Assembly: GCA_963612925.1 (NCBI GenBank)
Contig: CAVDXG010000004.1
Location: 1,084-65,083, forward strand
Direction: 5' to 3'
Source: Coriobacteriaceae bacterium
GTDB lineage: Bacteria; Bacillota_I; Bacilli_A; RFN20; CAG-826
Length of the DNA: 64,000 nucleotides
Part shown: one piece after another, positions 4,922 to 22,348 of the stretch
Numbering within the stretch: the first letter of the stretch is position 1
How the letters are laid out: every line of letters begins with the position of its first letter
Program-made: the position numbers and the translations under genes
The notes under the pieces: generated by a model
The model's database searches: none
What the model was told of the DNA's origin: nothing
The model's input: the letters and a program-made list of their open reading frames with translations, nothing else

Positions 4922-4941
4922 AATTCAGTAGAGTTTAATTG

Positions 4942-5493: not shown

Positions 5494-6281
5494 AGATGAA
5501 AGTTAAAAATTATGTTCGCGTAAAAAGCTTAGAGGAAGCTCACGCTTTATATTGCGCTAGTCCGCTTAATAAAATTTTAGGAGGTGGACTTTGGCTTAAA
5601 AAAGGTAACGCTTCCATCGATACTTTAATCGATTTATCTTTGCTCGGCTTAGATAAGATTGAAGAGGAAGATAACTATATCAAAGTGGGTGCATTAGTGA
5701 GCCAAAGACAATTTGAAACTAGTCCACTTATCAAAGAAGTTTTCACAGGTATGCTATCTGAGGCAACTTCTCAAATCATGGGGCCAGCTTTTCGAGAATG
5801 TGCCACGATCGGAGGCTCAATCATGGGAAAATTTGGTTTCTCGGATTTATTAACTGCCCTTTTAGCTACAGATGCTAGATTAGTTTTCTATCCATATAAA
5901 GAAATTTCGTTAGAAGAATTTCTAAATTCAGCTGCGATGAATAAAGATATTCTCACTCATGTTTTAATTCGTAAATGTCATCGCCGTTCTTATTTTAAGA
6001 AAGTGTGTTTGACTGCTTTAGATTATCCGATTGTGAATGTTGCGATCACTCATTGCATTCGCCATGACCAATATAGTATCGCTGTTGGCTCAAGAGCAGG
6101 CGTAGCCACTCTAGCTAAAGATGTGATGGATTTAGTTAATAATGGCGAAAAAGATTTTGCTAAAGCAAGTGAAGAAGTTAGTAAGCTTAAATTCACCGAT
6201 AACTTATCTGCGAAAGCGGATTATCGAGAACATTTAGCAAAAATATATGTTCGCCGCGGACTTGAGGAGGTAAATAAATAA
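5490..6281 (+). CDS. Mo-hydroxylase FAD-binding subunit (CoxM/YgfM-like), set 1
   Basis: 263 aa with a CO-dehydrogenase-flavoprotein-type FAD-binding domain (ILGGGLWL, ATIGGSI). ATGA overlap with mocA. Confidence 0.85.
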   Translation: MKMKVKNYVRVKSLEEAHALYCASPLNKILGGGLWLKKGNASIDTLIDLSLLGLDKIEEEDNYIKVGALVSQRQFETSPLIKEVFTGMLSEATSQIMGPAFRECATIGGSIMGKFGFSDLLTALLATDARLVFYPYKEISLEEFLNSAAMNKDILTHVLIRKCHRRSYFKKVCLTALDYPIVNVAITHCIRHDQYSIAVGSRAGVATLAKDVMDLVNNGEKDFAKASEEVSKLKFTDNLSAKADYREHLAKIYVRRGLEEVNK

Positions 6282-6736
6282 TGTTATTGAATTTTAAATT
6301 AAATGGTTTAGATAGAGCTGTGGATGTTAAACCTAATGAATACCTTCTTGATACTCTTAAGAGAATCGGCATTGAATCGCTTAAAAAAGGATGCGATGGC
6401 TCTTCCTGCGGAGCATGCACTATTTTAGTTAATGGTAAGCCTGCCTTATCTTGTTCGATTCTATCTTTACAAGTGGAAGGAAAAGAGGTTACCACCGTTG
6501 AGGGCATTCAAGAAGAAGCGAGCAAAATCGCTGAATGCTTTGCTTTAGAAGGCGCCGATCAATGCGGTTATTGTAATGCTTCTTTTGCTTTAACAATTTT
6601 CGCTTTATCAAAAGAGCTAAATAATCCAACTGATTTAGAAATTAAAAAATATTTAGTAGGCAATATTTGTCGATGCACTGGCTATTATGCTCAACTTAAA
6701 GCTGTTAAAAGATATTTAGGGGGTCTAAATAAATGA
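6281..6736 (+). CDS. Mo-hydroxylase [2Fe-2S] subunit, set 1
   Basis: 151 aa with the cysteine clusters CDGSSCGACTILV and QCGYC...CRCTGY, typical of the XDH-family small subunit. Confidence 0.9.
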   Translation: MLLNFKLNGLDRAVDVKPNEYLLDTLKRIGIESLKKGCDGSSCGACTILVNGKPALSCSILSLQVEGKEVTTVEGIQEEASKIAECFALEGADQCGYCNASFALTIFALSKELNNPTDLEIKKYLVGNICRCTGYYAQLKAVKRYLGGLNK

Positions 6737-9054
6737 AAAAGAAATTCAAAGTAGTCAACAATTTAACCCCTTCTCTAGATGGAAAAGGCCTTATGATGGG
6801 TCGGCCATTTTATACCGATGATTTAGCAGAGAAAAACTCACTTATCATCAAGATTTTAAGAAGCCCACATGCTTTTGCTCACATCAAAAATATAGATACG
6901 ACTGAAGCTGAAAAACTCCCAGGTGTAGAATGCGTTTTAACTCATAAAAATGTCCCACATGTATCCTATTCTCGGGCTGGACAAGGTTATCCTGAACCTT
7001 CTCCTCATGATAAATTCATCTTTGATGAATATGTCCGTTATGTTGGCGATGAAGTCGCCGCGGTGGCCGCAATAAATGAAGAAATAGCTTTAGAAGCTTT
7101 AAAACTCATCAAGGTTGAATATGAAATCTTAGAGCCAGTTTTAGATTTTGAAAAAGCTTATAAGAATAAATCTGTTATTCATCCTGAGGACGGCATAAAT
7201 GAGATGTTCCCAATTGGCTTTGATCCTAAAAACAATGTGGCGGCCTCTTATGAAATGCATGTCGGCGATGTCGATAAAGAATTTGAAAAATGTGATTATG
7301 TCGTTGAAGAAGTTTTCTATTCACAAGCCCAAGCCCACGCCATGCTCGAGCCTCATGCATGTAACGCTAGACTTGATGTCAGAAATCGCTTAGTGATTTA
7401 TTCAACTACTCAAACGCCATTCCATATGCGTCGAATCATGGCTAAAACTTTAGGCTTACCAATTGAAATGATTCGCTTTATTAAACCGCGTGTCGGCGGT
7501 GGCTTTGGAGGAAAACAAGCTTTCCATGGCGAAATGTTTGCAGCATTAGTAACTTTAAGAACGAAAAAACCTTCCAAGTGCGTCTACACTCGTGAAGAAG
7601 TATTTGGCTCAACTTATACTCGCCACCCGATGAGAATCACCATGAAAATCGGGGCTACAAAAGATGGCAAAATTCAAGTTATCGATTGCCATTCTTTAAG
7701 CGATACTGGAGCTTATGGTGAACATTCCTTAACTGTTTTTATGATTGTTGGTAGTAAAGTACTACCTTTATATAACAAAGTTAAAGCTGTTCGTTATGGC
7801 GGACTGGTAGTTTATACAAACCATGTTTCCGCTGGGGCATTTAGAGGCTATGGAGCGATTCAAGGAAATTTTGCATTAGAGTCAACGATTGATATTCTAG
7901 CTGAAAAGATGGGCGTTGACCCAGTGAAGCTAAGAGAAGATAATTCGATGAAAGAAAAAGAAACTTCCCCAATTTTTGAAATCATGGGTGAAGGAACTAA
8001 AGGCACTCCGATGATTATGGAAAGTTGCAAGCTCCCATATTGCATTAAGCGCGGAAAAGATCTCATCAATTGGGATGAGAAATATCCTTGTAAGCAAGTC
8101 GGACCTCACACAATTAGATCTGTTGGTATGGCGATTGCTATGCAAGGAAGTGGCATTCCATTCCTTGATATGGGAAGTTGCTCAATTAAATTAAATGATG
8201 GTGGCTCATTCATGGTCACTGTTGGAGCGACTGATATCGGGCAAGGAAGCGACACCGCCATTGCTCAAATTGTGGCGGAAGAGTTACAAACTAGCATCGA
8301 TAAAGTGCTTGTTTATTCTTCCGATACCGACTTAACACCTTATGACTGCGGAGCCTATGCTTCATCTACTACTTATGTAAGTGGAAATGCCGCATATAAA
8401 GCAGCCTGCAAGATGAAAGAACGCCTATTAGAAGAAGCTGCTTCTTTCTTAGAAGTTAAGGTCGATACAGTTAAATTTGATGGTAAAGAATTCACTTCTG
8501 GCGATAAGAAAGTTAGTCTTGATGAATTGTCCACTCGTCGACTTTATAACACTGACACTCATCAAATAGCGGTAGTCGAAAGCTATCACGGAAAAGTTTC
8601 TCCACCTCCTTTTATGGCGGGCTTTGCTGAAATTGAAATCGACACCGAAACATATGAATATAAAGTTTTAAATTATGTAAGCGTTGTCGACTGTGGAACC
8701 ACGATTAACCCGGGACTTGCTAAAGGACAAGTGGAAGGTGGAATTATCCAAGGTTTAGGCATGGCCTCTTATGAAGAAGTTAAATATTCGCCTAAAGGAA
8801 AATTGTTATCAAATACATTTGACACATATCACGTTCCAACTTGTATGGAAGTGAATAAATTGACGACTGAATTTGCTGATTCTTATGAAATAAGCGGTCC
8901 GTTTGGAGCAAAATCGGTTGGTGAGATTGGAATTGATACTCCTCCAGCCGTCATTGATAACGCCATTTATAATGCACTTGGAGTAAGACTACATTCATTA
9001 CCGATTACTCCTGAAAAGATTTTTGAGGCAATGAAAGAAAAGAATTCGAAATGA
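6733..9054 (+). CDS. Mo-hydroxylase molybdopterin-binding large subunit, set 1 (XdhD/aldehyde-oxidoreductase-like)
   Basis: 773 aa with motifs GGGFGGKQ, FRGYGAIQ and a C-terminal AKSVGEIG (catalytic Glu). Confidence 0.9.
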   Translation: MKKKFKVVNNLTPSLDGKGLMMGRPFYTDDLAEKNSLIIKILRSPHAFAHIKNIDTTEAEKLPGVECVLTHKNVPHVSYSRAGQGYPEPSPHDKFIFDEYVRYVGDEVAAVAAINEEIALEALKLIKVEYEILEPVLDFEKAYKNKSVIHPEDGINEMFPIGFDPKNNVAASYEMHVGDVDKEFEKCDYVVEEVFYSQAQAHAMLEPHACNARLDVRNRLVIYSTTQTPFHMRRIMAKTLGLPIEMIRFIKPRVGGGFGGKQAFHGEMFAALVTLRTKKPSKCVYTREEVFGSTYTRHPMRITMKIGATKDGKIQVIDCHSLSDTGAYGEHSLTVFMIVGSKVLPLYNKVKAVRYGGLVVYTNHVSAGAFRGYGAIQGNFALESTIDILAEKMGVDPVKLREDNSMKEKETSPIFEIMGEGTKGTPMIMESCKLPYCIKRGKDLINWDEKYPCKQVGPHTIRSVGMAIAMQGSGIPFLDMGSCSIKLNDGGSFMVTVGATDIGQGSDTAIAQIVAEELQTSIDKVLVYSSDTDLTPYDCGAYASSTTYVSGNAAYKAACKMKERLLEEAASFLEVKVDTVKFDGKEFTSGDKKVSLDELSTRRLYNTDTHQIAVVESYHGKVSPPPFMAGFAEIEIDTETYEYKVLNYVSVVDCGTTINPGLAKGQVEGGIIQGLGMASYEEVKYSPKGKLLSNTFDTYHVPTCMEVNKLTTEFADSYEISGPFGAKSVGEIGIDTPPAVIDNAIYNALGVRLHSLPITPEKIFEAMKEKNSK

Positions 9055-10364
9055 AAATTGATAAACAACTAATCAATGGTTTAGCTTTTATTTCCGGAGT
9101 TTGGGAAAAGAAAAATATCGCGATAAGCGGAGAAAAGATTGCTTATATTGGCGATGAAGTTTTCCCTGAAGGCGAAATTATCGATTGTAAAGGATTAAAA
9201 ATCCTTCCTGGGCTTATCGACCCGCATGTTCATTTTGAACTCAACTGTGGAAAGTTAACTTCCATTGATGATTTTTATTTTGGAAGCGTATCTGCCGCCT
9301 ATGGAGGAGTGACTACCATTGTTGATTTCCTCGATCCAAGTAGAAACGCCGATGAACTTCGCGAGTCCTATTATGAACGAGCTTTACTAGCCAAGAAGAG
9401 TTTAGTTGATTATCACTTTCACGCCTGCATAAAGATGCCAAATGGCGATTTAGAAGAATATGTGAAGACTACTAAAGAGCTTGGTATGAGAACAATTAAA
9501 TTGTTTACCACTTATAGCGACACCGGGCGAAGAACATATGATAAAGACATCATTGAATTATTAAAGTTGAGTCAAAAATATGATGTTTTGATACTTGCTC
9601 ATATCGAAGCGGATGATAAGATTGTTATCAAAAACGAATATACGTATAAGGATTTATGTGCCTCTAGACCATCATATGCGGAAACTTTAGAAGCCTTAAA
9701 ATTAGCTTCATATGTTAAAGAATACGGCGGTTATTTATATATGGTTCATTGCTCAAGTGGTCAAACTCTTCATGATTTAAAAGAGCAATATGGTGATTTA
9801 ATAAATAAACACCTATTCATCGAATCTTGTCCTCAATATTTCATTTTCAATAACTCCGTTTTGGATAAAGAAAATGGACAATTATTTACTTTTGCTCCTC
9901 CTTTAAGAAGTGAGAGAGAGCGACAACTACTTGTTGCGAATTTTGATGATATTAATACAATTGGCACCGATCACTGCGCCTTTAGTAAAGCTGATAAGAA
10001 TCACCCTACTCTTATTGACTTCCCACTTGGAGTTGGAGGAATTGAATATTCTTTCACTACAATGTATCGAAGATTCGGGGATAAAGTTATCGCAAAGATG
10101 AGCGAAAACGTGGCAAAAATTGAAGATTTTCCGACTAAAGGCAGTTTAAAAGTTGGATTAGATGCTGATATTTCCATCTTTAAAGAAGATGATAATTATT
10201 TCATTAATAACACTAATCACGGGAAATGCGATTATTCAATCTATGAAGGTATCTTAGCTGATGGCGAATTTATTCATACGCTTGTTAGAGGCGAGTTTGT
10301 TTTAAAGAATCGAGAAATAGTTCCTCACAAAGGAAAAGAAATAATCTGTGGAGTGACAAAATGA
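9051..10364 (+). CDS. hyuA: Cyclic amidohydrolase, D-hydantoinase/dihydropyrimidinase family (HyuA/YgeZ-like)
   Basis: 437 aa with the metal motif PGLIDPHVHF and a candidate carboxylated Lys in TIKLFT. ATGA overlaps on both sides. Confidence 0.85.
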   Translation: MKIDKQLINGLAFISGVWEKKNIAISGEKIAYIGDEVFPEGEIIDCKGLKILPGLIDPHVHFELNCGKLTSIDDFYFGSVSAAYGGVTTIVDFLDPSRNADELRESYYERALLAKKSLVDYHFHACIKMPNGDLEEYVKTTKELGMRTIKLFTTYSDTGRRTYDKDIIELLKLSQKYDVLILAHIEADDKIVIKNEYTYKDLCASRPSYAETLEALKLASYVKEYGGYLYMVHCSSGQTLHDLKEQYGDLINKHLFIESCPQYFIFNNSVLDKENGQLFTFAPPLRSERERQLLVANFDDINTIGTDHCAFSKADKNHPTLIDFPLGVGGIEYSFTTMYRRFGDKVIAKMSENVAKIEDFPTKGSLKVGLDADISIFKEDDNYFINNTNHGKCDYSIYEGILADGEFIHTLVRGEFVLKNREIVPHKGKEIICGVTK

Positions 10365-11659
10365 AAGCTTTAATCAATGTAAGAATTTATGACTATATTA
10401 ACTATATCGAAAATGGTTATGTCATTTTTGATAAAGAGGTTGTTAAAGTCGGCGCGATGAAAGATTTTAACGATGAAGGATATTCCGTTATAGATGGAAA
10501 AGGTTCTTTACTTCTTCCAAATTTTGTCTGCGCACATTCTCACATCTATTCTATCTTTGCTCGCGGTCTTTCCTTGCCATTCAATCCACATAATTTCTAT
10601 GAAATACTCGAACAAATGTGGTGGAAATTAGATGCAAAATTAACGAATGAATTGACCTATTATAGCGGCATTGCTGCCTCTAGCGAATTTCTCTTAAACG
10701 GGGTTAGCACAGTCGTTGACCATCACGCTTCAGGCGAAATAATTAATTCCTTAAACGCTTTAAAAAAGAGCGTGGTCAATGTAGCTGGATTAAGAGGAAT
10801 ATTCTGCTTTGAAACTAGCGATAGATATCAAGTTAAAGATTGCATCAGAGAAAATAAACGCTTTGCTTTAAAAAATCATGATAGTCATTGCTCTGGCTTA
10901 TTTGGTATGCACGCCTCGATGAGCTTATCTAATAAAACCTTAAAAATGGTTAAAAGAAATCTAGGTGAGATTCCCCTTCATGTCCATGTCGCAGAAAGCG
11001 AGATGGATGAAATTGATTCGATGGATAAATATTCAACATCTATCATTGAACGATTTGAAAAATATGGGTTGCTTAGCAAAGACTCTTTGCTCGTTCATGG
11101 AGTCGCTTTATCGGATAAAGAATTAGATATCATTAAAGCTCATGATTGTTTAATGGTGGTTAACACCACGAGCAATATGAACAACGCTGTCGGTTTACCG
11201 AATGTAAAAGCCTATTTAGATAAAGGCATTAAAGTGATGGTCGGAAACGATGGACTTAATTCGAATATGGCTAGCGAATTTATGAATGTTTATTACACTT
11301 CCCATTTAAGAAATGAATCTCCAACTCAGTTATCACTAAACGAGGTTAGAGAAATGATTTTAAATAGCTATGAATATGTCTCAAATAGATTGAATATCAA
11401 ACTAGGCCGAATCGAAAAAGGTTACTGCGCGGACTTTATGTTAACGCCATACAAGAATTTTACTCGCATTGATAATTCTAATGCTTTTGGACATGTTTTC
11501 TTCGGTTTATTCCCATCTTTTAAGCCAAGCGATGTTTTTATCGATGGTAAGAAAGTTGTGAAAAATTATAAATTGGTGAGAATTAAATTAATTAACGAAT
11601 TAAATAAAGCAAATGCTTATTCAGATAAATTATGGAAGAGCCTTAAGGAGGAAAACTAA
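10361..11659 (+). CDS. ssnA: Putative aminohydrolase SsnA (chlorohydrolase/deaminase family)
   Basis: 432 aa with the amidohydrolase HxH motif (CAHSHIYS). Length and context match SsnA of the E. coli ygf/yge locus. Confidence 0.8.
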   Translation: MKALINVRIYDYINYIENGYVIFDKEVVKVGAMKDFNDEGYSVIDGKGSLLLPNFVCAHSHIYSIFARGLSLPFNPHNFYEILEQMWWKLDAKLTNELTYYSGIAASSEFLLNGVSTVVDHHASGEIINSLNALKKSVVNVAGLRGIFCFETSDRYQVKDCIRENKRFALKNHDSHCSGLFGMHASMSLSNKTLKMVKRNLGEIPLHVHVAESEMDEIDSMDKYSTSIIERFEKYGLLSKDSLLVHGVALSDKELDIIKAHDCLMVVNTTSNMNNAVGLPNVKAYLDKGIKVMVGNDGLNSNMASEFMNVYYTSHLRNESPTQLSLNEVREMILNSYEYVSNRLNIKLGRIEKGYCADFMLTPYKNFTRIDNSNAFGHVFFGLFPSFKPSDVFIDGKKVVKNYKLVRIKLINELNKANAYSDKLWKSLKEEN

Positions 11660-11663
11660 ACAT

Positions 11664-12761
11664 ATGGATATTAAGACCACTTTTGATGGATTAGAATTAG
11701 CTAATCCGCTTATGCCAGCCGCCGGACCACTTGTTGGCGATGCTACAAAAATGCTTTGGCTTGAAAAAGAAGGATGTGGGGCGATTGTTTCTAAAACGAT
11801 TTCCACCAAAGACGCCCATATTCCTCATCCATGCATTTACGGCGATAAAGATTACATTCTTAACTGTGAACTTTGGACTGAATATACTAAGGAAAAATGG
11901 CTAGATGAATTCCTTCCTTATTTTAAGAAACATAGCGATGGAAGACCTTTGATTATCTCGGTTGGTTATACCAAAGAGGATATGAAAATCTTGATTCCTC
12001 TTTTAGATAAATTTGCCGATGCCTTCGAAGTTTCTACTCATTATGTCGGCAATGACTTATCTGAAATCGGCAAGACCGTAGCCACGATTCGCTCTCTTAC
12101 TAAAAAGCCAATCTATATGAAGATCAGCGCTCATATGCCTGATCCAGAAGGCTTTGCTAAAACGATAAAAGAAAATGGGGCGAATGGTGTTGTAGCAGTC
12201 AATTCACTTGGACCAAGCATGAAGATTGATATTGCTTCTAGATCGATAATTTATGGAAACAGCAAAGGCTTCGCTTGGACTAGTGGACCATATATTAAAA
12301 ATATTGCTCTAGCCACTGTTTATACAATTAAGCAAGCTGAGCCATCTTTAACTGTCATCGGTGTTGGCGGAATTCAAAGCGCAGATGATGTTGTCGAGTT
12401 CCTTTTAGCCGGGGCAAGCGGAGTTCAAATGCTATCCGCGGCGATGCTTAAAGGAAAAGGCTTATATCGTAAAATTATTGGCGATTTGCCAGCATCTTTA
12501 GCGAAATACGGCTTTAATTCCGTGCAAGAAGTCATTGATACAAAGCTTAATAATCATGCTGTTTTCGGCAAAGGGGATACGCCTAAACTTGAAAAAGCGA
12601 AATGCATAAAATGTGGAACATGTGAAAGAATATGCCCTTATTTTGCTATTGATATGAGCAATGATGGACCAATATTTAAAAGCGATAAATGTTTTAGATG
12701 TGGACTTTGCGTTTCAAAATGTCCAACTAAAGCACTTAACTACATTAAAGTTGAGGAATAA
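11664..12761 (+). CDS. Dihydroorotate/dihydropyrimidine-dehydrogenase-like flavoenzyme with a C-terminal 2x[4Fe-4S] ferredoxin domain (PreA-like)
   Basis: A DHOD-fold TIM barrel (ANPLMPAAGP...GVGGI) plus CIKCGTCERICP and CFRCGLCVSKCP. The ATG at 11664 follows AAGGAGGA. The track start at 11613 overlaps ssnA and lacks an SD. Confidence 0.85.
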   Translation: MDIKTTFDGLELANPLMPAAGPLVGDATKMLWLEKEGCGAIVSKTISTKDAHIPHPCIYGDKDYILNCELWTEYTKEKWLDEFLPYFKKHSDGRPLIISVGYTKEDMKILIPLLDKFADAFEVSTHYVGNDLSEIGKTVATIRSLTKKPIYMKISAHMPDPEGFAKTIKENGANGVVAVNSLGPSMKIDIASRSIIYGNSKGFAWTSGPYIKNIALATVYTIKQAEPSLTVIGVGGIQSADDVVEFLLAGASGVQMLSAAMLKGKGLYRKIIGDLPASLAKYGFNSVQEVIDTKLNNHAVFGKGDTPKLEKAKCIKCGTCERICPYFAIDMSNDGPIFKSDKCFRCGLCVSKCPTKALNYIKVEE

Positions 12762-12763
12762 GC

Positions 12764-14875
12764 ATGCTTCCATTTAAAAGCAAATATCCAACTTCAACAA
12801 CCAAGGTTGATCAATATATAAAAGTACGTGGTGAAGCCAAATTCACCGATGATTTTACTTTTAAAGATTTGCTTTACGCCAAAACGGTGCGAAGTAGCAT
12901 CGCAAAAGGCGATATTGTTAGCATCACTAAGCCAAATTTACCTGATGGCTATTATTGGATAGATTATCACGATATACGCGGTGATAATGTCACCAACATC
13001 ATCTTCTCTGATTGGCCGGTTTTCGCCGAAAAACATGTCAACTATATCGGAGAGGCAATAGCTTTAATCGTTGGACCAAATAAAGGTGAACTCGAGCGCT
13101 TAGTAAATGAAGTTAAAATCGAATATATTGAAGAAGAACCTGTATATGATTTAGTTGATAGCTACATCCATAAAGAATTTAAAAAAGGCAACATTGAAAT
13201 TGCTAAAAAAGAAGCTACAAAAATTATTGAAGAAGATTATACAACTTCTTATCAAGAGCAAGCCTATCTTGAACCGCAGGGAATGCTTGTCTATTTTGAT
13301 GATGAACATCGATTAACTTGCGTTGGCTCTATTCAATGTCCTTTCTATGTCCATCGAGCGGTCATGAGAGCTTGTAAACTTAATAACGATCAAGTGCGAG
13401 TAATTCAACCTGCCGTCGGCGGAGCCTTTGGAGGAAAAGAACATTATCCTTCGATGATGGCTGCTCAACTAGCGACAGCTTTATTAAAAATAAATAAACC
13501 AATTAAGATGTGCTTTGAACGACCAGAAGATTTGATGTATTCGACAAAACGTCATCCTTCAAAGACGCATTATAAAGCCTATATCGATGAAGAAAATAAC
13601 ATTTTAGGCATGGAAGTTAAGGTCGCTCTTAATGGCGGAGCATTTAAAGGTTGTAGCGGTGTTGTCTTATCGCGTGCTTTAATTGCCTGCGTCAATGTCT
13701 ATAACATTCCTTCTTTAGATGTTAAAGGTGATGTTTATATGACTAATACTGTTCCAACTGCCGCTTTCCGAGGCTTTGGTTCTCCTCAAACTATTTTTGC
13801 TATTGAAATGTTTATGAATCACATCGCTAAACGCTTAGGCGTTGATCCATTAGAATTTAGACTTAAATATCTTGTGAAAGAAGGAGATGTTACCACCAAT
13901 AGCGGTACATTCCACGATCCAATCATACTTCCTGAGCTCATCGATAAAGCGATGGAAATGAGCGATTACAAGCGAAAAATTGTTGAATATTCAAAACCAG
14001 GTTGCAATAAAGGAATTGGAATGAGTTTCTTCCTACATGGATGTGGTTTTACTGGAAGCGGTGAAAGCGACATCATCAAAGGAAAAGTTAAATTGATAAA
14101 AGATAAAAGAGATATAGTTCACGTCTATGCTTCTAGCGTTGACATGGGGCAAGGCAATAAGACCACCCTTAAAAAGATTGTAGCTAGAAATCTTGAAATT
14201 CCTGATGATCAAGTTGTATTTGATAATCCTGATACATCAATTATCCCCGACAGCGGGCCTACCGCCGCAAGTCGAACAATTATTATTGTTGGCTTCTTAA
14301 TGGAAAAGGCCGCGAAAAATTTAAAGAAAATATGGAAAAGTGGTGTCTATCAAGAACATGTTGAACCTTATGTAGGACCAAGTTACATCAAATGGGATGA
14401 AGATAGTATGCAAGGCGATGCTTATCCTTCCTATTCTTGGGGCGTAAATGTGGTGGAAGTAGAATACGATCCAATCACATATCAAATTCAAATTCTGCAT
14501 ACCTATTCGACTTATGATGTTGGTAGAGTCGTCGATGAACGCATCGCAGTAGGCCAAGCTGATGGAGGATTGCTCCAAGGTTTAGGCTATGGCTATATGG
14601 AGACGATGAAAGTTAAAGATGGAAAGTTTCAACAGAAGTCTTTAAGCGATTATATCGTTCCAACTTTCGAAGATGCTCCTTTGATGGAAACTGCCTTTAT
14701 TGATAATCCATTTATTTATGGAGCTAATGGTGCGAAAGGAATGGGCGAGTTAACTCTTGTTGGAGGAGCTCCCGCGATTGCTTTAGCTATAGAAAATGCG
14801 ATAAATAGGAAAGTTAATGACATTCCTTGCAACCCAGAATACATCATGGAGTTAGTTAAAAATGGCAAAGATTAA
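12764..14875 (+). CDS. Mo-hydroxylase molybdopterin-binding large subunit, set 2 (xanthine-dehydrogenase-like)
   Basis: 703 aa with motifs GGAFGGKE, AFRGFGSPQ and AKGMGELT. Confidence 0.9.
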   Translation: MLPFKSKYPTSTTKVDQYIKVRGEAKFTDDFTFKDLLYAKTVRSSIAKGDIVSITKPNLPDGYYWIDYHDIRGDNVTNIIFSDWPVFAEKHVNYIGEAIALIVGPNKGELERLVNEVKIEYIEEEPVYDLVDSYIHKEFKKGNIEIAKKEATKIIEEDYTTSYQEQAYLEPQGMLVYFDDEHRLTCVGSIQCPFYVHRAVMRACKLNNDQVRVIQPAVGGAFGGKEHYPSMMAAQLATALLKINKPIKMCFERPEDLMYSTKRHPSKTHYKAYIDEENNILGMEVKVALNGGAFKGCSGVVLSRALIACVNVYNIPSLDVKGDVYMTNTVPTAAFRGFGSPQTIFAIEMFMNHIAKRLGVDPLEFRLKYLVKEGDVTTNSGTFHDPIILPELIDKAMEMSDYKRKIVEYSKPGCNKGIGMSFFLHGCGFTGSGESDIIKGKVKLIKDKRDIVHVYASSVDMGQGNKTTLKKIVARNLEIPDDQVVFDNPDTSIIPDSGPTAASRTIIIVGFLMEKAAKNLKKIWKSGVYQEHVEPYVGPSYIKWDEDSMQGDAYPSYSWGVNVVEVEYDPITYQIQILHTYSTYDVGRVVDERIAVGQADGGLLQGLGYGYMETMKVKDGKFQQKSLSDYIVPTFEDAPLMETAFIDNPFIYGANGAKGMGELTLVGGAPAIALAIENAINRKVNDIPCNPEYIMELVKNGKD

Positions 14876-15344
14876 ATTCAATTTAAATAATGTTGAAATG
14901 GAAGTTGATGTCGACCCAAGTCGAAGATTGATTGATTTTCTTCGTGAGGATATGCACTTAACTGGAACCAAAGAAGGCTGCGGCGAAGGAAGCTGCGGAG
15001 CATGTGTCGTTTTACTTGATGGCTATTCCGTAAATTCATGCCTCATACCGATGGCTAATGTTATGAATCACTCAATTATCACCATTGAAGAATACAAAAA
15101 GAGTGAACGTTTCAATATTTTATATACCTGTTTTAGTGAAGAAGGCGGTTCACAATGTGGATTTTGCACACCGGGAATGATTATTGCAGCCGAATCACTT
15201 CTTTCACATAACCCTCATCCGAGCGAAGAGGAAATTCGAAAAGCGATGTCCGGGAATTTATGCCGTTGCACTGGCTATCAAGCCATTGTTAATGCCGTTA
15301 AATTAGCGAGCAAGATTGGAGATAAAGCATGGGAGAAAAAATAA
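14862..15344 (+). CDS. Mo-hydroxylase [2Fe-2S] subunit, set 2
   Basis: 160 aa with CGEGSCGACVV and QCGFCTPG...CRCTGY. Confidence 0.9.
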   Translation: MAKIKFNLNNVEMEVDVDPSRRLIDFLREDMHLTGTKEGCGEGSCGACVVLLDGYSVNSCLIPMANVMNHSIITIEEYKKSERFNILYTCFSEEGGSQCGFCTPGMIIAAESLLSHNPHPSEEEIRKAMSGNLCRCTGYQAIVNAVKLASKIGDKAWEKK

Positions 15345-16186
15345 TAGCAAATTCACTTAATGAAGCTCTTATTGCTTTAGATAGTCATAATTGCACCATC
15401 GTTGCTGGTGGAAGCGATATTATGCTACAAAAACGCAATGTTGCTGGCGAATTGCCTAAATTTTCAGGCGATGTTCTCTTTATTTCAAACTTAAAAGAAT
15501 TGCATTATGAAGTGCTTGAAGATGATGGCGTTCATATCGGTGCGACAATGACTTTGGAGGAAATTTTAGACAATGAATTCACTCCTAAAGTTTTAAAAGA
15601 TTGTATCAGTGAACTTGCGAGCGCCAACATTCGTCACTTTGCTACTCTAGCTGGAAACATTGCTAATGCCTCTCCAGCTGGCGACACCATCGTCGTGGAT
15701 GTGCTTTTAGATGCGACATTGAAGTTAACTTCCATTAATGGAAGTCGATTTGTAAAAGCTGCTGATTTTGTTAAAGGCGTTCGAAAAATTGATTTACAAA
15801 AGAATGAATTAATCGAAGAAATTATTTTTCCTAAATATGATTTTGATGAACTTGTTTTCTTCAAAGTTGGCTCTAGAAAAGCCGAATCTATCTCAAAGGT
15901 TTCCTTCGCCGGAGCTTATATGCTTGAAAATGGAATCATAAAAGATATTCGTCTTTCTTATGGCTCAGTCTTTATTAAAGCAATAAGAAGTTATGCTCTT
16001 GAAGAAGAACTTAAAGGCTTATCGATTAAAGAATTAGAGAATAGAGTTGAAGAATATGTTGATAAATATGGTGAATTTATTTCTCCAATTGATGATCAAA
16101 GATCAAATAGATTTTATCGAAAAGAGGTAGCGAAAAATATCACGAGAATGTTTTTAAATAAGGTAATTGAAGGAGGCAATAGATGA
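15329..16186 (+). CDS. Mo-hydroxylase FAD-binding subunit, set 2
   Basis: 285 aa with an FAD-binding PCMH-type domain (IVAGGSDIM, ATLAGNIANASPAGD). Confidence 0.85.
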   Translation: MGEKIIANSLNEALIALDSHNCTIVAGGSDIMLQKRNVAGELPKFSGDVLFISNLKELHYEVLEDDGVHIGATMTLEEILDNEFTPKVLKDCISELASANIRHFATLAGNIANASPAGDTIVVDVLLDATLKLTSINGSRFVKAADFVKGVRKIDLQKNELIEEIIFPKYDFDELVFFKVGSRKAESISKVSFAGAYMLENGIIKDIRLSYGSVFIKAIRSYALEEELKGLSIKELENRVEEYVDKYGEFISPIDDQRSNRFYRKEVAKNITRMFLNKVIEGGNR

Positions 16187-17427
16187 ATTATATCAAAGGG
16201 TATCGTTGTACGATATGCCACAAGTTTTTTCGTCCTGATGAGGTCGATTTAACTTGCCCTGTATGTGGCGAAAAAGGAATCCTCGATATCGAATACGATT
16301 ACGATGAATTAAAGAAAATTCTTACTAAAGATTACTTTAAGAATAACTCTAATTATTCGATGTGGCGTTATTATCCAATCATGGGAATCGAAAAGGATAA
16401 TATCGATAAAATGCTAAGAGTTGGCTGGACTCCTCTATATGAAGCTTACAATTTAGAAAAAGTATTTAATCTAAAGAAACTTTATATAAAAGATGATGGC
16501 CTTAATCCTAGCGGTTCTAGTAAAGATCGCGCTTCCGGAGTGGCGGTTTTAAAAGCTATTGAAGCTGGTGCGAAAACTATTGCTTGTTCATCAACCGGCA
16601 ATGCGGCTAGCTCTTGTGCTTGTCAAGCTGCCAGAATGGGACTTCACGCCGTTATCTTTGTGCCGAAAAGAGCACCTATTGGTAAAGTGACACAAATTGC
16701 TTTATATGGCGCTACTCTTATCTGCGTTGACGGCGATTATAAAGCAGCTTTCTCACTGTCGAAACAAGCTATTGAAAAATATGGTTGGTATAACCGCAAC
16801 GCGGCAATTAATCCATTCATGATTGAAGGTAAGAAAACTGTAGCGATGGAAATCGCTGAACAGCTCGATTTTAAAGTCACCGATTGGGTAGCTGTAAGCG
16901 TTGGCGATGGTTGCACAGTTGGAGGCGTCTATAAAGGCTTTTTAGAATTCTATAAGTTAGGTTTAATCGATAGAATTCCTAAGATTTTAGGCGTGCAGAG
17001 CAAAGGCTGCGAACCTTTTGTAGTCGCTAGTAAAACTGGCGAGCCTTTAAAAGAATGCGATGAAAACACCATTGCCGATTCTATCGCAGTGGGAATACCT
17101 CGCAATCCTATAAAAGCTTTAAATGCGATTAGCTTATCTCACGGCGCGTGGATTTCAGTAAGCGACGATGATATCATTAAAGCACAAGCTTTATTAGGTA
17201 AAAGCGAAGGCATATTTGGTGAGCCTGCAGGGGTGGCAGCAATTGCTGGAATAAAAGAAGCAATTAAAGAAGGCATCATCAAAAATAGTGAAAGTGTAAC
17301 AATGATTGTAACGGGCAATGGACTTAAAGATCCTAAAAATGCCCAAAAAGCTATCACCCAACCTAAATTAATGAAACCAAATCTAGAAGAATTGGATAAA
17401 TTTTTGAAAGAAAAAGGAGCAATTTAA
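16183..17427 (+). CDS. Fold-type II PLP enzyme, threonine-synthase-like, with an N-terminal Zn-ribbon
   Basis: 414 aa. N-terminal CTIC...CPVC, the PLP-lysine motif NPSGSSKDR, and glycine-rich SVGDGCTVGG. Confidence 0.8.
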   Translation: MNYIKGYRCTICHKFFRPDEVDLTCPVCGEKGILDIEYDYDELKKILTKDYFKNNSNYSMWRYYPIMGIEKDNIDKMLRVGWTPLYEAYNLEKVFNLKKLYIKDDGLNPSGSSKDRASGVAVLKAIEAGAKTIACSSTGNAASSCACQAARMGLHAVIFVPKRAPIGKVTQIALYGATLICVDGDYKAAFSLSKQAIEKYGWYNRNAAINPFMIEGKKTVAMEIAEQLDFKVTDWVAVSVGDGCTVGGVYKGFLEFYKLGLIDRIPKILGVQSKGCEPFVVASKTGEPLKECDENTIADSIAVGIPRNPIKALNAISLSHGAWISVSDDDIIKAQALLGKSEGIFGEPAGVAAIAGIKEAIKEGIIKNSESVTMIVTGNGLKDPKNAQKAITQPKLMKPNLEELDKFLKEKGAI

Positions 17428-17428
17428 C

Positions 17429-18799
17429 ATGTCAAAAATTCCATTTGGACCGACCTATGATGAAATGCTAAATCCAGCACATCAAGATCCAAAAACCAGA
17501 GCAGCAGCTCTAAAAGCTCTCAAAGAAAATGAGCTTGATCCAATTAACTTGTTCAACATCACTTGGAAAAATGAGCACGATCAAGTTAATAAGATAGTTC
17601 TACCGAAAGAACTAACCGGTGTCGAGGCGAACATTGTCGTTTTACTTGGCAAATATTTCCCATCAGGTTCACATAAAGTTGGACCAGCCTATTCGACGCT
17701 TATGGAAGGCTGTGTCGATGGGGAAATTATTCCAGGAAAACATACCATTTTAGGACCTTCAACAGGTAACTTTGGTATCGGTGTTTCCTACATCACTAAT
17801 TTAATGAAATATGATGCGATCGTTATCATGCCTGACAACATGAGCAAGGAAAGATATGAACGCATCTCAAAATATGGAGCGAAATTAGATTTAACTCCAG
17901 GTAGCGAATCTGATGTTATTCTTACCCTTGAAAGAACATACGAACTTAAAAAAGATCCGAAGAATCGCACACTTGCCCAATTTGAACTTCTTCCAAACTA
18001 TCGTTTCCATCGCCATGTGACTGGAAATAGCTGTGTTGAAGCAGTTAAAGGCATTGGCAATTCTCGAATTGCCTGCTTCTGCAGCGCGCCTGGAAGTGCT
18101 GGCACATTAGCCGCCGGCGATCAAATCAAAGTCGCTTTCCCAGAATGTAAAGTTGTCGCCTTAGAACCGCATGAATGTTCAACTCTCACTAACGGAGGTT
18201 TAGGACAACACCGCATCGAAGGTATTGGCGATAAGATGATCACTTTAATTCACAATGTTTTAACCACTGATTTTATCACTCAAATCATCGATGAAGATTG
18301 CGTCCGCGGATTAGCAGTAATCCATGAAGGAACTGATGTTCTTGTTAAACATGGAATTGATAAAAAAGTTGCTGAATCGATGGTCAATTTATTCGGTGTA
18401 TCCGGCATTTGTAACATCTTAGGAGCAATTAAGATGGCTAAATATCTTAAACTTGGACCTGACGATAACGTCGTCACCATTGCCACCGATAGCTTTGATA
18501 GATATCCATCAGTTATGGAAGATTTACATAAACGCGAACTCGAAGTCACTCCAAATGTTTTAGAGAGATGGTTTGAAGATGTTTTCGAAGGTGCAGATAC
18601 TCGTTATATTCTCGATACTCGTGGCGTAGAAGCCAAAGAAAAACTCTTCAAACAAAAAGAACGCGATTGGCTTAAATTCGGTTACTCCCAAGAATATCTT
18701 GATTCGATGAGAAAGCCAGAATTCTGGGAAGATGAATACAACAAAATTCATGCCTACGATAAGAAAATTAAAGACATGCGTGGAAAGGAAGTTAAATAA
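17429..18799 (+). CDS. Fold-type II PLP enzyme, long cysteine-synthase/CBS-like family
   Basis: 456 aa with the motifs SGSHKVGPA (PLP Lys), PSTGNFGIG and SAPGSAGT. Confidence 0.75.
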
Positions 18800-20022
18800 T
18801 GAAAGTTTCATTTGAAGAAGTACTTAAAAAAGCTGAATCATATAAAGCTGACATGACAAAATTCCTTCGCGATATGATCGCTATCCCTAGCGAATCATGC
18901 GATGAGAAGAAAGTCGTTCTTCGCATTAAAGAAGAAATGGAAAAAGTTGGTTTTGATAAAGTCGAAATCGATGGAATGGGCAATATTTTAGGTTATGTTG
19001 GTCATGGTAAGCACTTAATTGCTATGGATGCCCATATCGATACTGTCGGAATTGGCGAAATCAAAAACTGGAAATTTGATCCATATAAAGGCTTTGAAGA
19101 TGATGTTTATATTGGCGGACGTGGAGCTAGCGACCAAGAAGGTGGCATGGCTTCGATGGTTTACGCCGCGAAGATTATCAAAGATTTACATTTAGAAGAT
19201 GATTACACCTTATTAATTACCGGAACTGTCCAAGAAGAAGACTGCGATGGCTTGTGCTGGAAATACATCATCGAGGAAGACAAAATCCGACCGGAATTTG
19301 TCGTTTCGACTGAACCAACTAGCTGCCGAATTTATCGTGGGCATCGCGGAAGAATGGAAATCAAAGTCAATGTCCGTGGCATCTCTTGCCATGGTAGCGC
19401 CCCTGAACGTGGAGATAACGCCATCTACAAGATGGGACCTATCATTATGGATATCAAAAAACTCAATGAAGAAGGACTTGCCTACGATCCATTTATCGGA
19501 AAAGGTACAGTTACCATCTCGCAAATTTTCCATAAATCTCCATCTAGATGTGCAGTTGCAGATGGCTGTTGGATTAGTCTTGATCGACGCCTAACAGTTG
19601 GTGAAAATGATAAAACTTCCATTGCTGAAATTGAAAATTTACCTTCTGTTAAAGCAGCGAAAGCAGAAGTTAGCATGTATGAATATTCTCGTCCATCTTA
19701 TACCGGACTTGTCTATCCAATTGAATGCTATTTCCCAACCTGGGTCATTCCAGAAGAATCGATTTATTGTCAATCGATGAAGGAAGGCTACCAAAAACTC
19801 TTTAAAAAAGATCCTGTCATCGATAAATGGACCTTCTCAACCAATGGTGTTTCCATCATGGGAAGATATCATATACCTTGCATTGGCTTTGGCCCTGGAG
19901 ATGAGGAAGAAGCTCACGCTCCAAACGAAAAAACACGAAAACAAGATTTGGTAATATGTGCAGCAATGTATGCAGTCTTACCTAATATCTATTTAGAACA
20001 TTTAGAAAAAGGAGAAAAGTAA
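18799..20022 (+). CDS. ygeY: YgeY-family M20 metallo-amidohydrolase ('selenium metabolism-linked hydrolase')
   Basis: 407 aa with M20 motifs [15 protein letters not shown] and EEDCDG. TAATG overlap with the upstream gene. Confidence 0.85.
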
Positions 20023-20026
20023 AAAA

Positions 20027-21040
20027 ATGAAAAAAATAGAACCTCGTTTTGCTGGTCGTCATCTCATCACTTTGGAAGATTTTTCTAAAGAAGAAATCGA
20101 CTACATGCTTCAAGTATCGCATGACTTAAAAGATGCTTTCTACCGCAATGAAGAAACTCAATGGTTAGTTGGAAAAACTGGTTTCTTGATGTTCTTTGAA
20201 CAATCAACAAGAACAAGAAATTCATTTGAATCTGGCATGGCTCAACTTGGAGGGCACGCCACATTCTTAGACACTTCTATGATGCAAATTGCTCACGGAG
20301 AATCCGCGAAGGATACCGCGGTTATTCTTTCTTCCTTTGGTCACATGATTGCCTGTAGATATTGCAACTGGGGATTAGGCAATAAATATATTCGTGAAAT
20401 GGCTAAATGGTCGACAGTTCCTGTCATCAATTTGCAATGCGATTTATTCCATCCTATGCAAGCTTTAGCGGATTTAATGACCATTGAAGATGAATTCAAT
20501 AAAGAAGTTAAGCATTTAAAAGTTTCTGTTATTTGGGCGATGGCAACTACTCATAAAAAACCAATCTCAGTTCCAGTTAGCCAAGTGCTTTTATTCCCTC
20601 GCTATGGAATGGATGTCACCCTTGCCTATCCTGAAGGCTATGATTTACCAGATTGGGTCATTGAAAAAGCGAGAAAGAACGCTGCTGAAAATGGCGGTTC
20701 ATTAACTATTACTCATGATATGGACGCCGCTTATCGCGATGCCGATGTCGTATTCCCTAAAAACTGGGGTTCATGGGTTACAAATCAATCCACGACCGTA
20801 GTCGATGATGCTTTGTTGGCTTTAAAATCTTGGAAGTGCACACCAGAAAAGATGGCACTTGCTAAACCTCATTGCCGTTATATGCACGCTCTTCCAGCTG
20901 ACAGAGTCAACGAAGTTGTTGATGAAGTTATCGACGGGCCAAATTCCGTAATTTATCAAGAAGCTGAAAATAGAATTCATACCGCGAAAGCAGTCATGGC
21001 TCTATTTGTTCACGATAAAGTCGCTAGCGATAGACGCTAA
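20027..21040 (+). CDS. ygeW: YgeW-like carbamoyltransferase (OTC/ATC superfamily)
   Basis: 337 aa with STRTR, QIAHGES, NLQCDLFHPMQALADL, KPISVP...GMDVTLAYPEGYDL and HALPA. These blocks line up with my recollection of E. coli YgeW, although this protein is shorter. Confidence 0.8.
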   Translation: MKKIEPRFAGRHLITLEDFSKEEIDYMLQVSHDLKDAFYRNEETQWLVGKTGFLMFFEQSTRTRNSFESGMAQLGGHATFLDTSMMQIAHGESAKDTAVILSSFGHMIACRYCNWGLGNKYIREMAKWSTVPVINLQCDLFHPMQALADLMTIEDEFNKEVKHLKVSVIWAMATTHKKPISVPVSQVLLFPRYGMDVTLAYPEGYDLPDWVIEKARKNAAENGGSLTITHDMDAAYRDADVVFPKNWGSWVTNQSTTVVDDALLALKSWKCTPEKMALAKPHCRYMHALPADRVNEVVDEVIDGPNSVIYQEAENRIHTAKAVMALFVHDKVASDRR

Positions 21041-21057: not shown

Positions 21058-21090
21058 AAGCAAGTTCATTATGGACTTGCTTTTAATTTT
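21058..21090 (+). terminator. Rho-independent terminator closing the 15-gene operon
   Basis: Stem AAGCAAGTTC / GGACTTGCTT with a 5-nt loop, followed by a T-rich tract. Confidence 0.7.
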
Positions 21091-21115
21091 AGTAAGCGCG
21101 TGTATAATTAAGGGC

Positions 21116-22348
21116 GTGAAAAGTTTAAGAAATCTCTATCGAATCGGAAGAGGACCTTCCTCTTCTCACACCATTGGTCCTGAACGAGCATCCCAATTTT
21201 TAAAGAACAAATATAGCGATGCCACATCAATTGATGTCATTTTATATGGTTCACTTGCTTTCACCGGAAAAGGTCACTTAACAGATAAAGTTATAATCGA
21301 TACTTTTTCGCCTATTCCAACGAAAGTAGTTTTTGATTATAAAAGTAAGGTAGACTTTCCTAATACCTTTGATGTGATTATCCACTTCTTAGACAAAGAA
21401 GATGTTAAAAAAAGAGTCCTTTCATTAGGCGGAGGAGCAATATCGATTGAAGGTGAAGTAGAAGAAAATGAAGCTGAAGTTTATCCAGAAAAGAACTTTG
21501 CTGAAATTAAAGAATTTTGTCAAAAAAACAATTTTACCTTGCCTCAATATGTTGAACATTATGAAGGCAAAGACATCTGGCAGTTTCTAAAAAGCATCTG
21601 GGATCAAATGTGCAAAACCATTGATGCTGGAATGCATAATAAAGGTGAATTGCCAGGAAATTTGCACATTCATCGCCGGGCTAATAGCTTTTTACTTCCT
21701 TCACATTTAAAGGAATCTAGCTTCTCTAGATCTAATAGAATGATTGATGCGTATGCTTTTGCAACGAACGAGGAAAACGCTTCTGGCGGAGTGGTTGTAA
21801 CTGCCCCGACATGTGGAAGCTCTGGAACTCTTCCAGCTGTCTTGATGCATCTTATTGACCGTTATGAATATAATGACGATAAAATCGTTAAAGCTTTAGC
21901 GGTCGCCGGAGTAATTGGCAATGTTGTTAAAGCTAATGGTTCTATCTCAGGGGCTGAAGCAGGTTGCCAAGCTGAAATTGGCACTGCTTGCTCGATGGCC
22001 GCGGCGGCGACATCATATCTAAAAGGTTTTAATCTCGATCAAATCGAATATGCTGCAGAAGCTGCAATGGAGCATTCTTTAGGGCTCACTTGTGATCCAG
22101 TGGAAGGTTATGTTCAAATTCCTTGCATCGAGCGTAACGCCATTGCTGCAACAAAAGCATTAGCCTCAACCTATCTAGCTGAATATGCATCTTCATCTCA
22201 TCGAGTTAGTTTCGATACCATCGTACAAACAATGGTGGAAACTGGCCGAGATATGAAAAAGAAATATCGCGAAACTTCTAAAGGTGGTTTGGCGAAAGAT
22301 TATTTTTTAAACAATAAAAAGAGGAGGACTCGTAAAGATGGAAATTAA
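21116..22348 (+). CDS. sdaA: L-serine ammonia-lyase (Fe-S dependent, single-chain type)
   Basis: RIGRGPSSSHTIGP near the N-terminus, plus the CGSSGT and GAEAGCQAEIGTA motifs. I placed the start at GTG 21116, giving (M)KSLRNLYRIGRGPSSSHT, which parallels the E. coli SdaA N-terminus. The track ATG at 21071 lies in the loop of the upstream terminator. Confidence 0.85.
   Translation: MKSLRNLYRIGRGPSSSHTIGPERASQFLKNKYSDATSIDVILYGSLAFTGKGHLTDKVIIDTFSPIPTKVVFDYKSKVDFPNTFDVIIHFLDKEDVKKRVLSLGGGAISIEGEVEENEAEVYPEKNFAEIKEFCQKNNFTLPQYVEHYEGKDIWQFLKSIWDQMCKTIDAGMHNKGELPGNLHIHRRANSFLLPSHLKESSFSRSNRMIDAYAFATNEENASGGVVVTAPTCGSSGTLPAVLMHLIDRYEYNDDKIVKALAVAGVIGNVVKANGSISGAEAGCQAEIGTACSMAAAATSYLKGFNLDQIEYAAEAAMEHSLGLTCDPVEGYVQIPCIERNAIAATKALASTYLAEYASSSHRVSFDTIVQTMVETGRDMKKKYRETSKGGLAKDYFLNNKKRRTRKDGN

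Follow-up and report, generated by a model that had tools for sequence, protein, structure and literature searches.

The reductive (2,8-dioxopurine) pathway of urate degradation was worked out only in 2025, and probiotics that use it against gout and hyperuricaemia are being pursued. Urate is reduced by XdhD to 2,8-dioxopurine, dearomatisation of the ring is the task of YgfK (UacX in C. difficile), and ring opening by SsnA and HyuA gives 2,3-diureidopropionate, from which YgeW (or UacY) and YgeY strip the ureido groups to leave 2,3-diaminopropionate (DAP); YgeX finally splits DAP into pyruvate and ammonia, and the combined action of YgeW and YqeA yields ATP (PMC12507026; bioRxiv 2025.04.24.650524). 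The intermediates have been proposed to be (R)-configured, with their stereochemistry acknowledged as open in the literature on the pathway. Here we analyse a stretch of 64,000 nucleotides from Coriobacteriaceae bacterium (GTDB lineage Bacteria; Bacillota_I; Bacilli_A; RFN20; CAG-826; GenBank assembly GCA_963612925.1, contig CAVDXG010000004.1, positions 1,084 to 65,083 of the forward strand), hereafter the window, in which two genes for dissimilar fold-type II pyridoxal 5'-phosphate (PLP) enzymes, termed PLP1 (414 aa) and PLP2 (456 aa), lie among genes of this pathway. Comparative genomics and the analysis of both active sites lead us to propose, with a probability that we put at roughly 0.65, that the pair is a conserved two-gene, non-orthologous replacement of YgeX, which would convert DAP to pyruvate and ammonia.

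The genes of the reductive pathway are co-located at 3826-21040 of the window, where an XdhD-type molybdenum (Mo) enzyme, a UacX-type reductase, SsnA-like and HyuA-like proteins, ureido-cleaving enzymes, YgeY and carbamate kinase are encoded; we follow the published description for the composition of such clusters and the roles of the hydantoinase, SsnA and UacX-like genes (PMC12507026). Identity to the corresponding E. coli proteins ranges from 70% (YgeY) and 53% (YqeA) to 37% (XdhD), 36% (YgeW), 32% (SsnA) and 29% (HyuA). XdhD is the closest relative of the Mo subunit in the first of the two Mo-hydroxylase sets, whose flavin (FAD) subunit is 27% identical to YgfM. The carbamoyltransferase encoded at 20027-21040, previously taken to be of the YgeW type, turned out otherwise: it reaches 182-190 bits on the YgeW models, against cut-offs of 453-500, and is not of the knotted YgeW type, while it scores 262.5 bits on the ornithine carbamoyltransferase (OTC) model orni_carb_tr (cut-off 280.85) and 237 bits on the putrescine carbamoyltransferase model. 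Such an OTC-like enzyme accompanies YgeY in most of the clusters with PLP1 and PLP2, and its presence may matter for which ureido group undergoes phosphorolysis, albizziin being the lower homologue of citrulline. The window thus carries a UacX-type variant of the reductive urate pathway with an OTC-like carbamoyltransferase. YgeX, the usual terminal enzyme, is not among the urate-cluster genes of the window, and PLP1 and PLP2 stand in its slot.

Both genes are tightly packed between the FAD subunit of a Mo-hydroxylase, identified with Pfam, and ygeY. The stop codon of the FAD subunit gene is overlapped by the start of PLP1 (ATGA, 16183-16186), PLP1 and PLP2 are separated by a single base (TAA, one base and ATG at 17425-17431), and PLP2 overlaps ygeY in the sequence TAATG (18797-18801). 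Shine-Dalgarno-like sequences (GGAGG/AAGGAG) precede the starts of both, which are translationally coupled inside the catabolic operon. A preliminary description of this DNA had reported the two open reading frames (ORFs), their position, their junctions and their main motifs; all of these were recovered when the DNA and the translations were read again.

Neither protein belongs to the family of YgeX, also known as diaminopropionate ammonia-lyase (DpaL), when membership is judged by the curated cut-offs of PRK08206, TIGR03528 and TIGR01747. On the DpaL model PRK08206 (cut-off 276 bits) PLP1 scored 56.3 and PLP2 24.1 bits, the score on TIGR03528 was 21.5 bits against a cut-off of 532, and BLASTP identity to E. 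coli YgeX was 23% for PLP1 and 21% for PLP2. YgeX is a two-base enzyme that acts on both D- and L-DAP. Its Asp120 (TTDGNHG motif in E. coli), the second catalytic base, opposite Lys77, that permits action on D-DAP, aligns with Thr138 of PLP1 and with Thr112 of PLP2. Scanning the 64 kb in all six frames revealed no third ORF for a fold-type II PLP enzyme, and in none of the approximately 160 related loci described below was YgeX the best hit of any ORF.

PLP1 derives from threonine synthase (ThrC), but has lost the phosphate pocket of that enzyme. Across the whole catalytic domain it shares 35-39% identity with ThrCs of known structure (E = 4.5e-66 with 2zsj), and its translation contains the cysteine pairs C9xxC12...C25xxC28 and the motif NPSGSSKDR, with Lys114 as the Schiff-base lysine of the NPxGSxKDR type. 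Alignment with the Thermus enzyme (1uim) reproduces Lys61, the S84-T85-G86-N87-T88 loop, N154-S155, R160 and N188. In Thermus numbering, the phosphate of O-phosphohomoserine is bound by Thr88, Ser155, Arg160 and Asn188, residues reportedly identified by Omi et al. in 2003. PLP1 has Ala141, Ala208, Met213 and Asp242, respectively, at these four positions. The signature of this pocket was compared with four ThrC structures and with 53 neighbours of PLP2, and then between 63 signature-bearing and 13 canonical homologs. The residues T, S, R and N were invariant in the four solved ThrCs and in the 13 canonical controls; this invariance in real ThrCs and the residue numbering are consistent with that list of phosphate-site residues. 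PLP1-like neighbours of PLP2, on the other hand, carry T88A, S155A/G, R160M/L/T and N188D, a signature that spans Bacilli, Clostridia, Negativicutes, Acidobacteriota and Chloroflexota. Further changes with respect to ThrC affect the stretches NAGN (DGCT in PLP1), EGQKT (EGKKT) and ATAI (ADSI).

PLP1 exceeds the cut-off of the thrC model TIGR00260 (208.6 versus 167.1 bits) and stays under that of its best-matching model, PRK08197 (275 versus 303 bits), and an ortholog with the altered pocket (locus L015, 12857-14119) even passes the equivalog cut-off of PRK08197 (NF006050), with 309.9 versus 303 bits. Members of the family are labelled threonine synthase in NCBI and JGI records, which is likely to be a systematic misannotation. 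The N-terminal Zn ribbon does not set PLP1 apart. It had been considered unusual for a ThrC-like enzyme, yet it is conserved in PLP1 orthologs and in canonical ThrC controls alike: alignments to the ThrC models PRK08197 and PRK05638 begin at residues 2-8 of PLP1, and the four cysteines are aligned in 11 of the 13 homologs with a canonical active site, the other two being N-terminally cut. Judging from these alignments, the ribbon is ancestral in this branch of ThrC.

The second protein is related to cysteine synthase (CysK). Its translation shows the motifs SGSHKVGPA, with Lys83, and PSTGNFGIG, and its identity to the cores of CysK, beta-cyanoalanine synthase (CAS) and cystathionine beta-synthase (CBS) is 25-29%. 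Scores were far below the cut-offs of TIGR01139, the cysK model (133.0 versus 351 bits), TIGR01136 (131.5 versus 344) and TIGR01138, the CysM model (85.6 versus 394). An AlphaFold2 model of PLP2 (pLDDT 93.6, pTM 0.93) was matched by Foldseek to CysK, CAS and CBS cores with TMt of around 0.85 (0.82-0.88 to CysK) and TMq of around 0.6, with about 60% of the query covered; the predicted helical extensions, N-terminal (residues ~1-55, around 55 residues) and C-terminal (~360-456, around 95 residues), had no structural match in the Foldseek comparison. The hits of PLP2 also included the O-ureido-L-serine synthase 3x43. When 1.84 billion cluster representatives were searched exhaustively with HMMER, only 117 clusters reached E <= 1e-30, and many of these were fragments. 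In 108 members, with 34-92% identity, K83, S111, T112, N114, Q184, H194, S223 and T226 of the phosphate loop, and S325 were invariant, position 115 was F or Y, and the GIGDK motif was invariant save for a change of K269 to Gln in one of them. At that place the CysKs aligned here have an uncharged stretch after G-I-[GS] (AGF in three, PGF in one). From these alignments PLP2 looks like a distinct CysK-derived family that is catalytically intact.

Among more distant, full-length homologs of PLP2 (25-28% identity), P0239, P0159 and P0190 have lost the Schiff-base lysine, replaced by Q, Y or H, and may be pseudoenzymes or regulatory paralogs. Fusions were considered as a Rosetta-stone clue, but the long sequences P0188, P0196 and P0222 were uninformative, being either a tandem of plant-type CysK or gene calls with a frameshift.

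The distribution of both families was analysed from either side. When each GTDB species was represented by a single genome, a pattern scan gave at least 592 loci with a gene for a PLP2 relative; in the best 80 of these, ORFs were called and compared with the proteins of the window and of the E. coli urate cluster, taking as pathway markers SsnA, YgeY, carbamoyltransferase, carbamate kinase, the reductase, hydantoinase and the Mo subunit. Upstream sequence of 1.5 kb or more was available for 72 loci, of which 51 had a PLP1-like gene, directly adjacent in 33. Where at least 5 kb was available on both sides (n=51), PLP1 was found in 35 loci and two or more pathway markers in 30. Among the taxa represented are uncultured rumen and gut Bacilli, which are the closest relatives of the window, and Izemoplasmatales, Acholeplasmataceae, Liberiplasma, Peptococcaceae, Moorellaceae, Veillonellaceae, Acidobacteriota, Gemmatimonadales, Chloroflexota and BRC1. 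The PLP1-side scan, done on metagenome contigs and seeded with the PLP1 alignment, provided the 63 signature-bearing and 13 canonical ThrC homologs mentioned above. With flanks of at least 5 kb, PLP2 was present in 12 of the 20 signature-bearing loci, PLP2 or at least two markers in 17, and YgeX in none, while the five loci of canonical Zn-ribbon ThrCs had neither PLP2, nor two or more markers, nor YgeX. This comparison (17/20 versus 0/5) indicates that it is the altered-pocket signature, and not ThrC homology as such, that travels with the urate genes. Overall, across about 160 loci and several phyla, the two families are linked to each other and to genes of the lower pathway, and lie in clusters with SsnA, YgeY, carbamoyltransferase and carbamate kinase.

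Replacement of YgeX was found in every known architecture of the pathway: with YgeW and YgfK in L015, whose YgeW/YqeA/YgeY/YgfK set resembles that of E. coli, with the OTC-like enzyme and UacX in the window, and with the hydrolytic UacY in L017 and L040. Three gene orders were observed, namely PLP1 followed by PLP2, PLP2 followed by PLP1 (in a divergent clade with a PLP2 of ~490 aa) and PLP1-YgeY-PLP2. Each family also occurs without the other. PLP2 is present without PLP1 in L042, L045 and L047, in the order ...YgeY...OTC-carbamate kinase-SsnA-PLP2, and PLP1 without PLP2 in L114, L127, L135 and L145. Since PLP2 closes the operon of L045 (...OTC-carbamate kinase-SsnA-PLP2) and PLP1 that of L114 (YgeY-YgeW-carbamate kinase-PLP1, followed by a PPDK_N/phosphoenolpyruvate (PEP)-utilising protein at 8702-10429), an obligate heteromer of both proteins is unlikely. 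L114 also has a poly-gamma-glutamate-hydrolase-like gene (5450-6148) between YgeW and carbamate kinase.

Some loci hold only the lower part of the pathway. L040 (139-11359) and L017 (602-11353) encode a UacY-like amidohydrolase, PLP1, a YgeY-family M20 hydrolase and PLP2; L040, from Veillonellaceae, adds a sigma-54 regulator, an amino-acid ABC transporter and an SDH_alpha-only gene, and has neither Mo enzyme nor SsnA. These clusters suggest cross-feeding on intermediates of the pathway, with a ureido or diamino acid taken up from outside. A PnrA/Bmp-type nucleoside/purine ABC transporter lies between carbamate kinase and PLP1 in the metagenomic locus L139 (4888-9964), which is consistent with a purine-catabolic role of the module. 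A RidA gene (PF01042) overlaps the start of PLP1 in L017 (7040-7429), and in L020, where PLP1 is absent, a gene of the Asp/Glu/hydantoin-racemase/Amdase family directly follows PLP2 (11399-12070); each of these neighbours was seen in a single locus, and neither can be considered a general pattern.

Taken in the order of the pathway, the two Mo-hydroxylases, the UacX-type reductase and the SsnA-like and hydantoinase-like amidohydrolases of the window would convert urate to 2,3-diureidopropionate; YgeY and the OTC-like carbamoyltransferase would strip its two ureido groups, with release of carbamoyl phosphate by phosphorolysis, from which carbamate kinase would make ATP; and the remaining DAP would be turned into pyruvate and 2 NH3 by the PLP module. 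PLP1 would no longer be able to bind O-phosphohomoserine or another phosphorylated substrate, and the invariant Asp242 in the former phosphate pocket would suit the cationic beta-amino leaving group of DAP. ThrC is said, in work by Murakawa et al. in 2011, to rely on the released phosphate to direct the addition of water; lacking that phosphate, PLP1 should default to elimination, to give 2-aminoacrylate and then pyruvate. PLP2 retains all the PLP- and carboxylate-binding residues of CysK and would place the Asp-Lys pair of GIGDK at the side-chain pocket, features that point to a second beta-eliminating or beta-replacing enzyme for beta-amino alanine.

How the work might be divided between the two proteins can only be proposed tentatively. 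One proposal, to which we give somewhat over a third of the weight, is that PLP1 is a DAP lyase with an acidic pocket and PLP2 a GIGDK enzyme that either acts on the other enantiomer or converts DAP to serine; such a two-enzyme ending of the pathway would be new and, if true, would settle the question of its stereochemistry. The division of labour that we favour, with low confidence, is that both are complementary lyases, one for D- and one for L-DAP, which would jointly replace the D/L-active YgeX. This complementarity is favoured by the fact that each protein can end an operon alone, by the maintenance of the pair in two gene orders and by the open stereochemistry of the pathway.

Several observations weigh against a replacement of YgeX by this pair. 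The absence of YgeX applies to the window and the related loci, and a dpaL gene could lie elsewhere in these genomes. The loci were sampled by similarity, and many are hence phylogenetically non-independent. Around one fifth of the PLP2 loci with long flanks have neither PLP1 nor pathway genes, as is the case for some in Caldilineaceae and for that of Clostridium sp. ZS2-4, where PLP2 is solitary, beside an SNF-family transporter. In Caldilineaceae and Chloroflexia the PLP1/PLP2 pair is found among housekeeping genes, which implies that the module is not strictly tied to urate clusters. The proposal of one lyase per enantiomer, in turn, draws on the D/L activity of YgeX, the open stereochemistry and one racemase neighbour.

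An alternative, although unlikely, is a route via serine, in which PLP2 would act as a DAP (hydroxyl) lyase that exchanges the beta-amino group for water, and the serine formed would be deaminated to pyruvate by PLP1, as a serine dehydratase, or by the adjacent Fe-S L-serine dehydratase. In the alignment with Fn1055, a cysteine (hydroxyl) lyase, Asp268 of PLP2 falls on Asp232; GIGDK is an invariant motif of PLP2; and a gene for Fe-S serine dehydratase follows the operon in the window and in its closest relatives (L003, L004 and L006), with an SdaA-like gene also in L046, from Acidobacteriota, besides the SDH_alpha-only gene of L040. These neighbours, however, are found in three lineages only, so that the adjacency is not obligatory, and the dehydratase may be an accessory to the PLP1/PLP2 module. 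Moreover, the clusters with PLP1 only (L114, L135 and L145) would have no step from DAP to serine, the invariant Asp of the PLP1 pocket fits a cationic leaving group better than a hydroxyl, and passing through serine brings no energetic gain.

The PLP1-only clusters also speak against a combination of racemase and lyase, which we regard as improbable. Here the pathway would deliver D-DAP, PLP1 would racemise it and an L-specific PLP2 would eliminate ammonia, in line with the (R) configuration proposed for the intermediates, acknowledged as open. The racemase-family gene that takes up the place after PLP2 when PLP1 is missing (L020), and the lack of a recognisable hydantoinase in the PLP2-only urate operons L042, L045 and L047, would also agree with it, but the former is a single case and clusters with PLP1 only would be left without a lyase. 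The pyruvate/PEP-utilising enzyme after PLP1 in L114 is what would be expected if PLP1 itself makes pyruvate. We know of no precedent for a racemase derived from ThrC.

Other intermediates were also considered, either through beta-elimination of urea from 3-ureidoalanine (albizziin) or through entry of aminoacrylate or DAP into the biosynthesis of cysteine or serine. We find both quite implausible, despite the match of PLP2 to 3x43, which has the CysK fold and works with a ureido nucleophile, the proximity of cysS to the module in the window and in Caldilineaceae, and the presence of serC and a gene similar to phosphoglycerate dehydrogenase (PGDH) in the window: YgeY and a carbamoyltransferase or UacY are present in most clusters, and therefore both ureido groups are already provided for, the adjacency of cysS and serC is not kept beyond close relatives, and urate catabolism is a high-flux, energy-yielding process. 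Finally, that a biosynthetic threonine synthase and a cysteine synthase have come to lie in the operon by chance, as the names of several homologs in public records and the TIGR00260 score of PLP1 might be taken to mean, is rejected as very improbable given the loss of all four phosphate-site residues and the PRK08197 score of PLP1, the CysK and CysM scores of PLP2 with its extra domains and its GIGDK in place of the CysK loop, the translational coupling within a catabolic operon, and the fact that both families track urate genes across phyla and canonical ThrCs do not. Orthology to housekeeping thrC and cysK, which the preliminary description had opposed to its own suggestion that the pair takes the place of DpaL, fails on the same active-site and profile evidence, and that suggestion gains support from the comparative data.

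No description of the replacement of YgeX by a pair of the PLP1/PLP2 type was found in the literature searched. For the DAP step, YgeX is the sole enzyme named in both primary papers (PMC12507026; bioRxiv 2025.04.24.650524) and in a commentary. In the sequence-similarity-network analysis of one primary study, any PF00291 protein near SsnA is scored as YgeX, a procedure that would include PLP1 and PLP2 and thereby hide a different enzyme pair. A published survey of metagenome-assembled genomes (MAGs) identified YgeX by BLAST at 50% identity or more and counted a MAG as positive when at least four of seven proteins matched; the organism of the window would probably fail this test, and a criterion of this kind would miss rumen and gut Bacilli like those described here. 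If confirmed, the module would extend the ThrC and CysK families by two reaction specificities not known before. It also offers alternative parts for engineered uricolytic strains, and a direct way to examine by experiment which enantiomer of DAP, or whether both, the pathway produces.

The coordinates of the features discussed are collected in Table 1. Around the urate set, cysS follows the Fe-S L-serine ammonia-lyase gene, and the region just upstream of the divergent carbamate kinase gene (294-3772) encodes a DUF1015 protein, the phosphoserine transaminase SerC and a PGDH-like 2-hydroxyacid dehydrogenase. Further downstream, at 27457-29976, an 839-aa protein with Endonuclease I and Big_2 domains is encoded, probably a secreted or surface nuclease, which could supply purines derived from nucleic acids to the pathway.

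Table 1. Features of the window and their coordinates, with the basis of each assignment.
Feature	Position	Strand	Basis
PLP1, ThrC-derived fold-type II PLP enzyme, 414 aa, N-terminal Zn ribbon	16183..17427	+	PALP E = 1.3e-73
Zn-ribbon motif of PLP1, C9-x2-C12 ... C25-x2-C28	16207..16266	+	Read from translation
Lys114 codon of PLP1, PLP Schiff-base lysine	16522..16524	+	Aligns with Lys61 of Thermus ThrC (HMMER, 1uim)
Asp242 codon of PLP1, family-invariant, at ThrC Asn188 position	16906..16908	+	Alignment
PLP2, CysK-fold PLP enzyme, 456 aa	17429..18799	+	PALP E = 2.9e-20
Lys83 codon of PLP2, PLP Schiff-base lysine	17675..17677	+	Alignment to CysK structures; invariant
G265-I-G-D268-K269 motif of PLP2	18221..18235	+	HMMER alignment to 5b53; 108 homologs
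YgeY-family M20 hydrolase, predicted ureido cleavage in urate pathway	18799..20022	+	TIGR03526, 692.9 versus cut-off 321.5 bits
OTC/putrescine-carbamoyltransferase-like carbamoyltransferase in YgeW slot	20027..21040	+	Profile scores; 36% identity to E. coli YgeW
Single-chain Fe-S L-serine ammonia-lyase (SdaA-type)	21071..22348	+	TIGR00720, 362.6 versus 345.1 bits
Carbamate kinase (YqeA-like), predicted to form ATP from carbamoyl phosphate	3826..4740	-	TIGR00746, 382 versus 358 bits
MocA-like cytidylyltransferase, then Mo-hydroxylase set 1 (FAD, 2Fe-2S and Mo subunits)	4939..9054	+	
Hydantoinase-like protein (HyuA slot), SsnA-like aminohydrolase, UacX-like reductase of dihydroorotate dehydrogenase (DHODH)/PydA type with 4Fe-4S domain	9051..12761	+	
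Mo-hydroxylase set 2 (Mo, 2Fe-2S and FAD subunits)	12764..16186	+	Last stop codon overlaps PLP1 start

Compared with known enzymes, the module comes closest in position and expected outcome to YgeX/DpaL (E. coli b2871; PDB 4D9G family), likewise a fold-type II PLP enzyme encoded beside ygeY and the carbamoyltransferase, and the overall conversion of DAP to pyruvate and 2 NH3 would be the same; YgeX, however, is one gene and the module two. With the short Zn-ribbon type of ThrC (2ZSJ, 1UIM, 2D1F, 6CGQ; PRK08197, TIGR00260) PLP1 has in common the lysine, the S-T-G-N loop and the Zn ribbon, but the genomic context of ThrC is hom/thrB and that of PLP1 is purine catabolism; no ORF annotated in the 64 kb is hom or thrB. 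A precedent for the re-tooling of the Zn-ribbon ThrC scaffold towards a C3 substrate is provided by cysteate synthase (TIGR03844), a ThrC-derived beta-replacement enzyme with which PLP1 aligns in architecture over residues 8-386, at 79.5 bits against a cut-off of 324.9. Cysteate synthase uses a phosphorylated substrate, whereas PLP1 is without the phosphate pocket.

PLP2 keeps the fold of the CysK, CAS and CBS core, together with the Schiff-base lysine, the Asn loop, Gln184, the Gly-rich phosphate loop and Ser325, and differs in having GIGDK where CysK has a GIGAGF-type loop. The protein Fn1055 of Fusobacterium nucleatum (5B53/5B55) is a CysK-fold cysteine (hydroxyl) lyase that converts cysteine and water to serine and H2S, with Asp232 as a key residue (PMC12940168, PMC9865163). 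This Asp232 (EGISD; index 236 in the PDB chain, owing to an added 4-residue tag) is the residue aligned with Asp268 of PLP2 (EGIGD). Fn1055 has cysteine as its substrate, lacks the terminal extensions of PLP2 and is no closer to it than ordinary CysKs, 5b53 ranking sixth (E = 5.2e-25) after several of them, but it shows that a CysK scaffold is able to exchange a beta-substituent for water.

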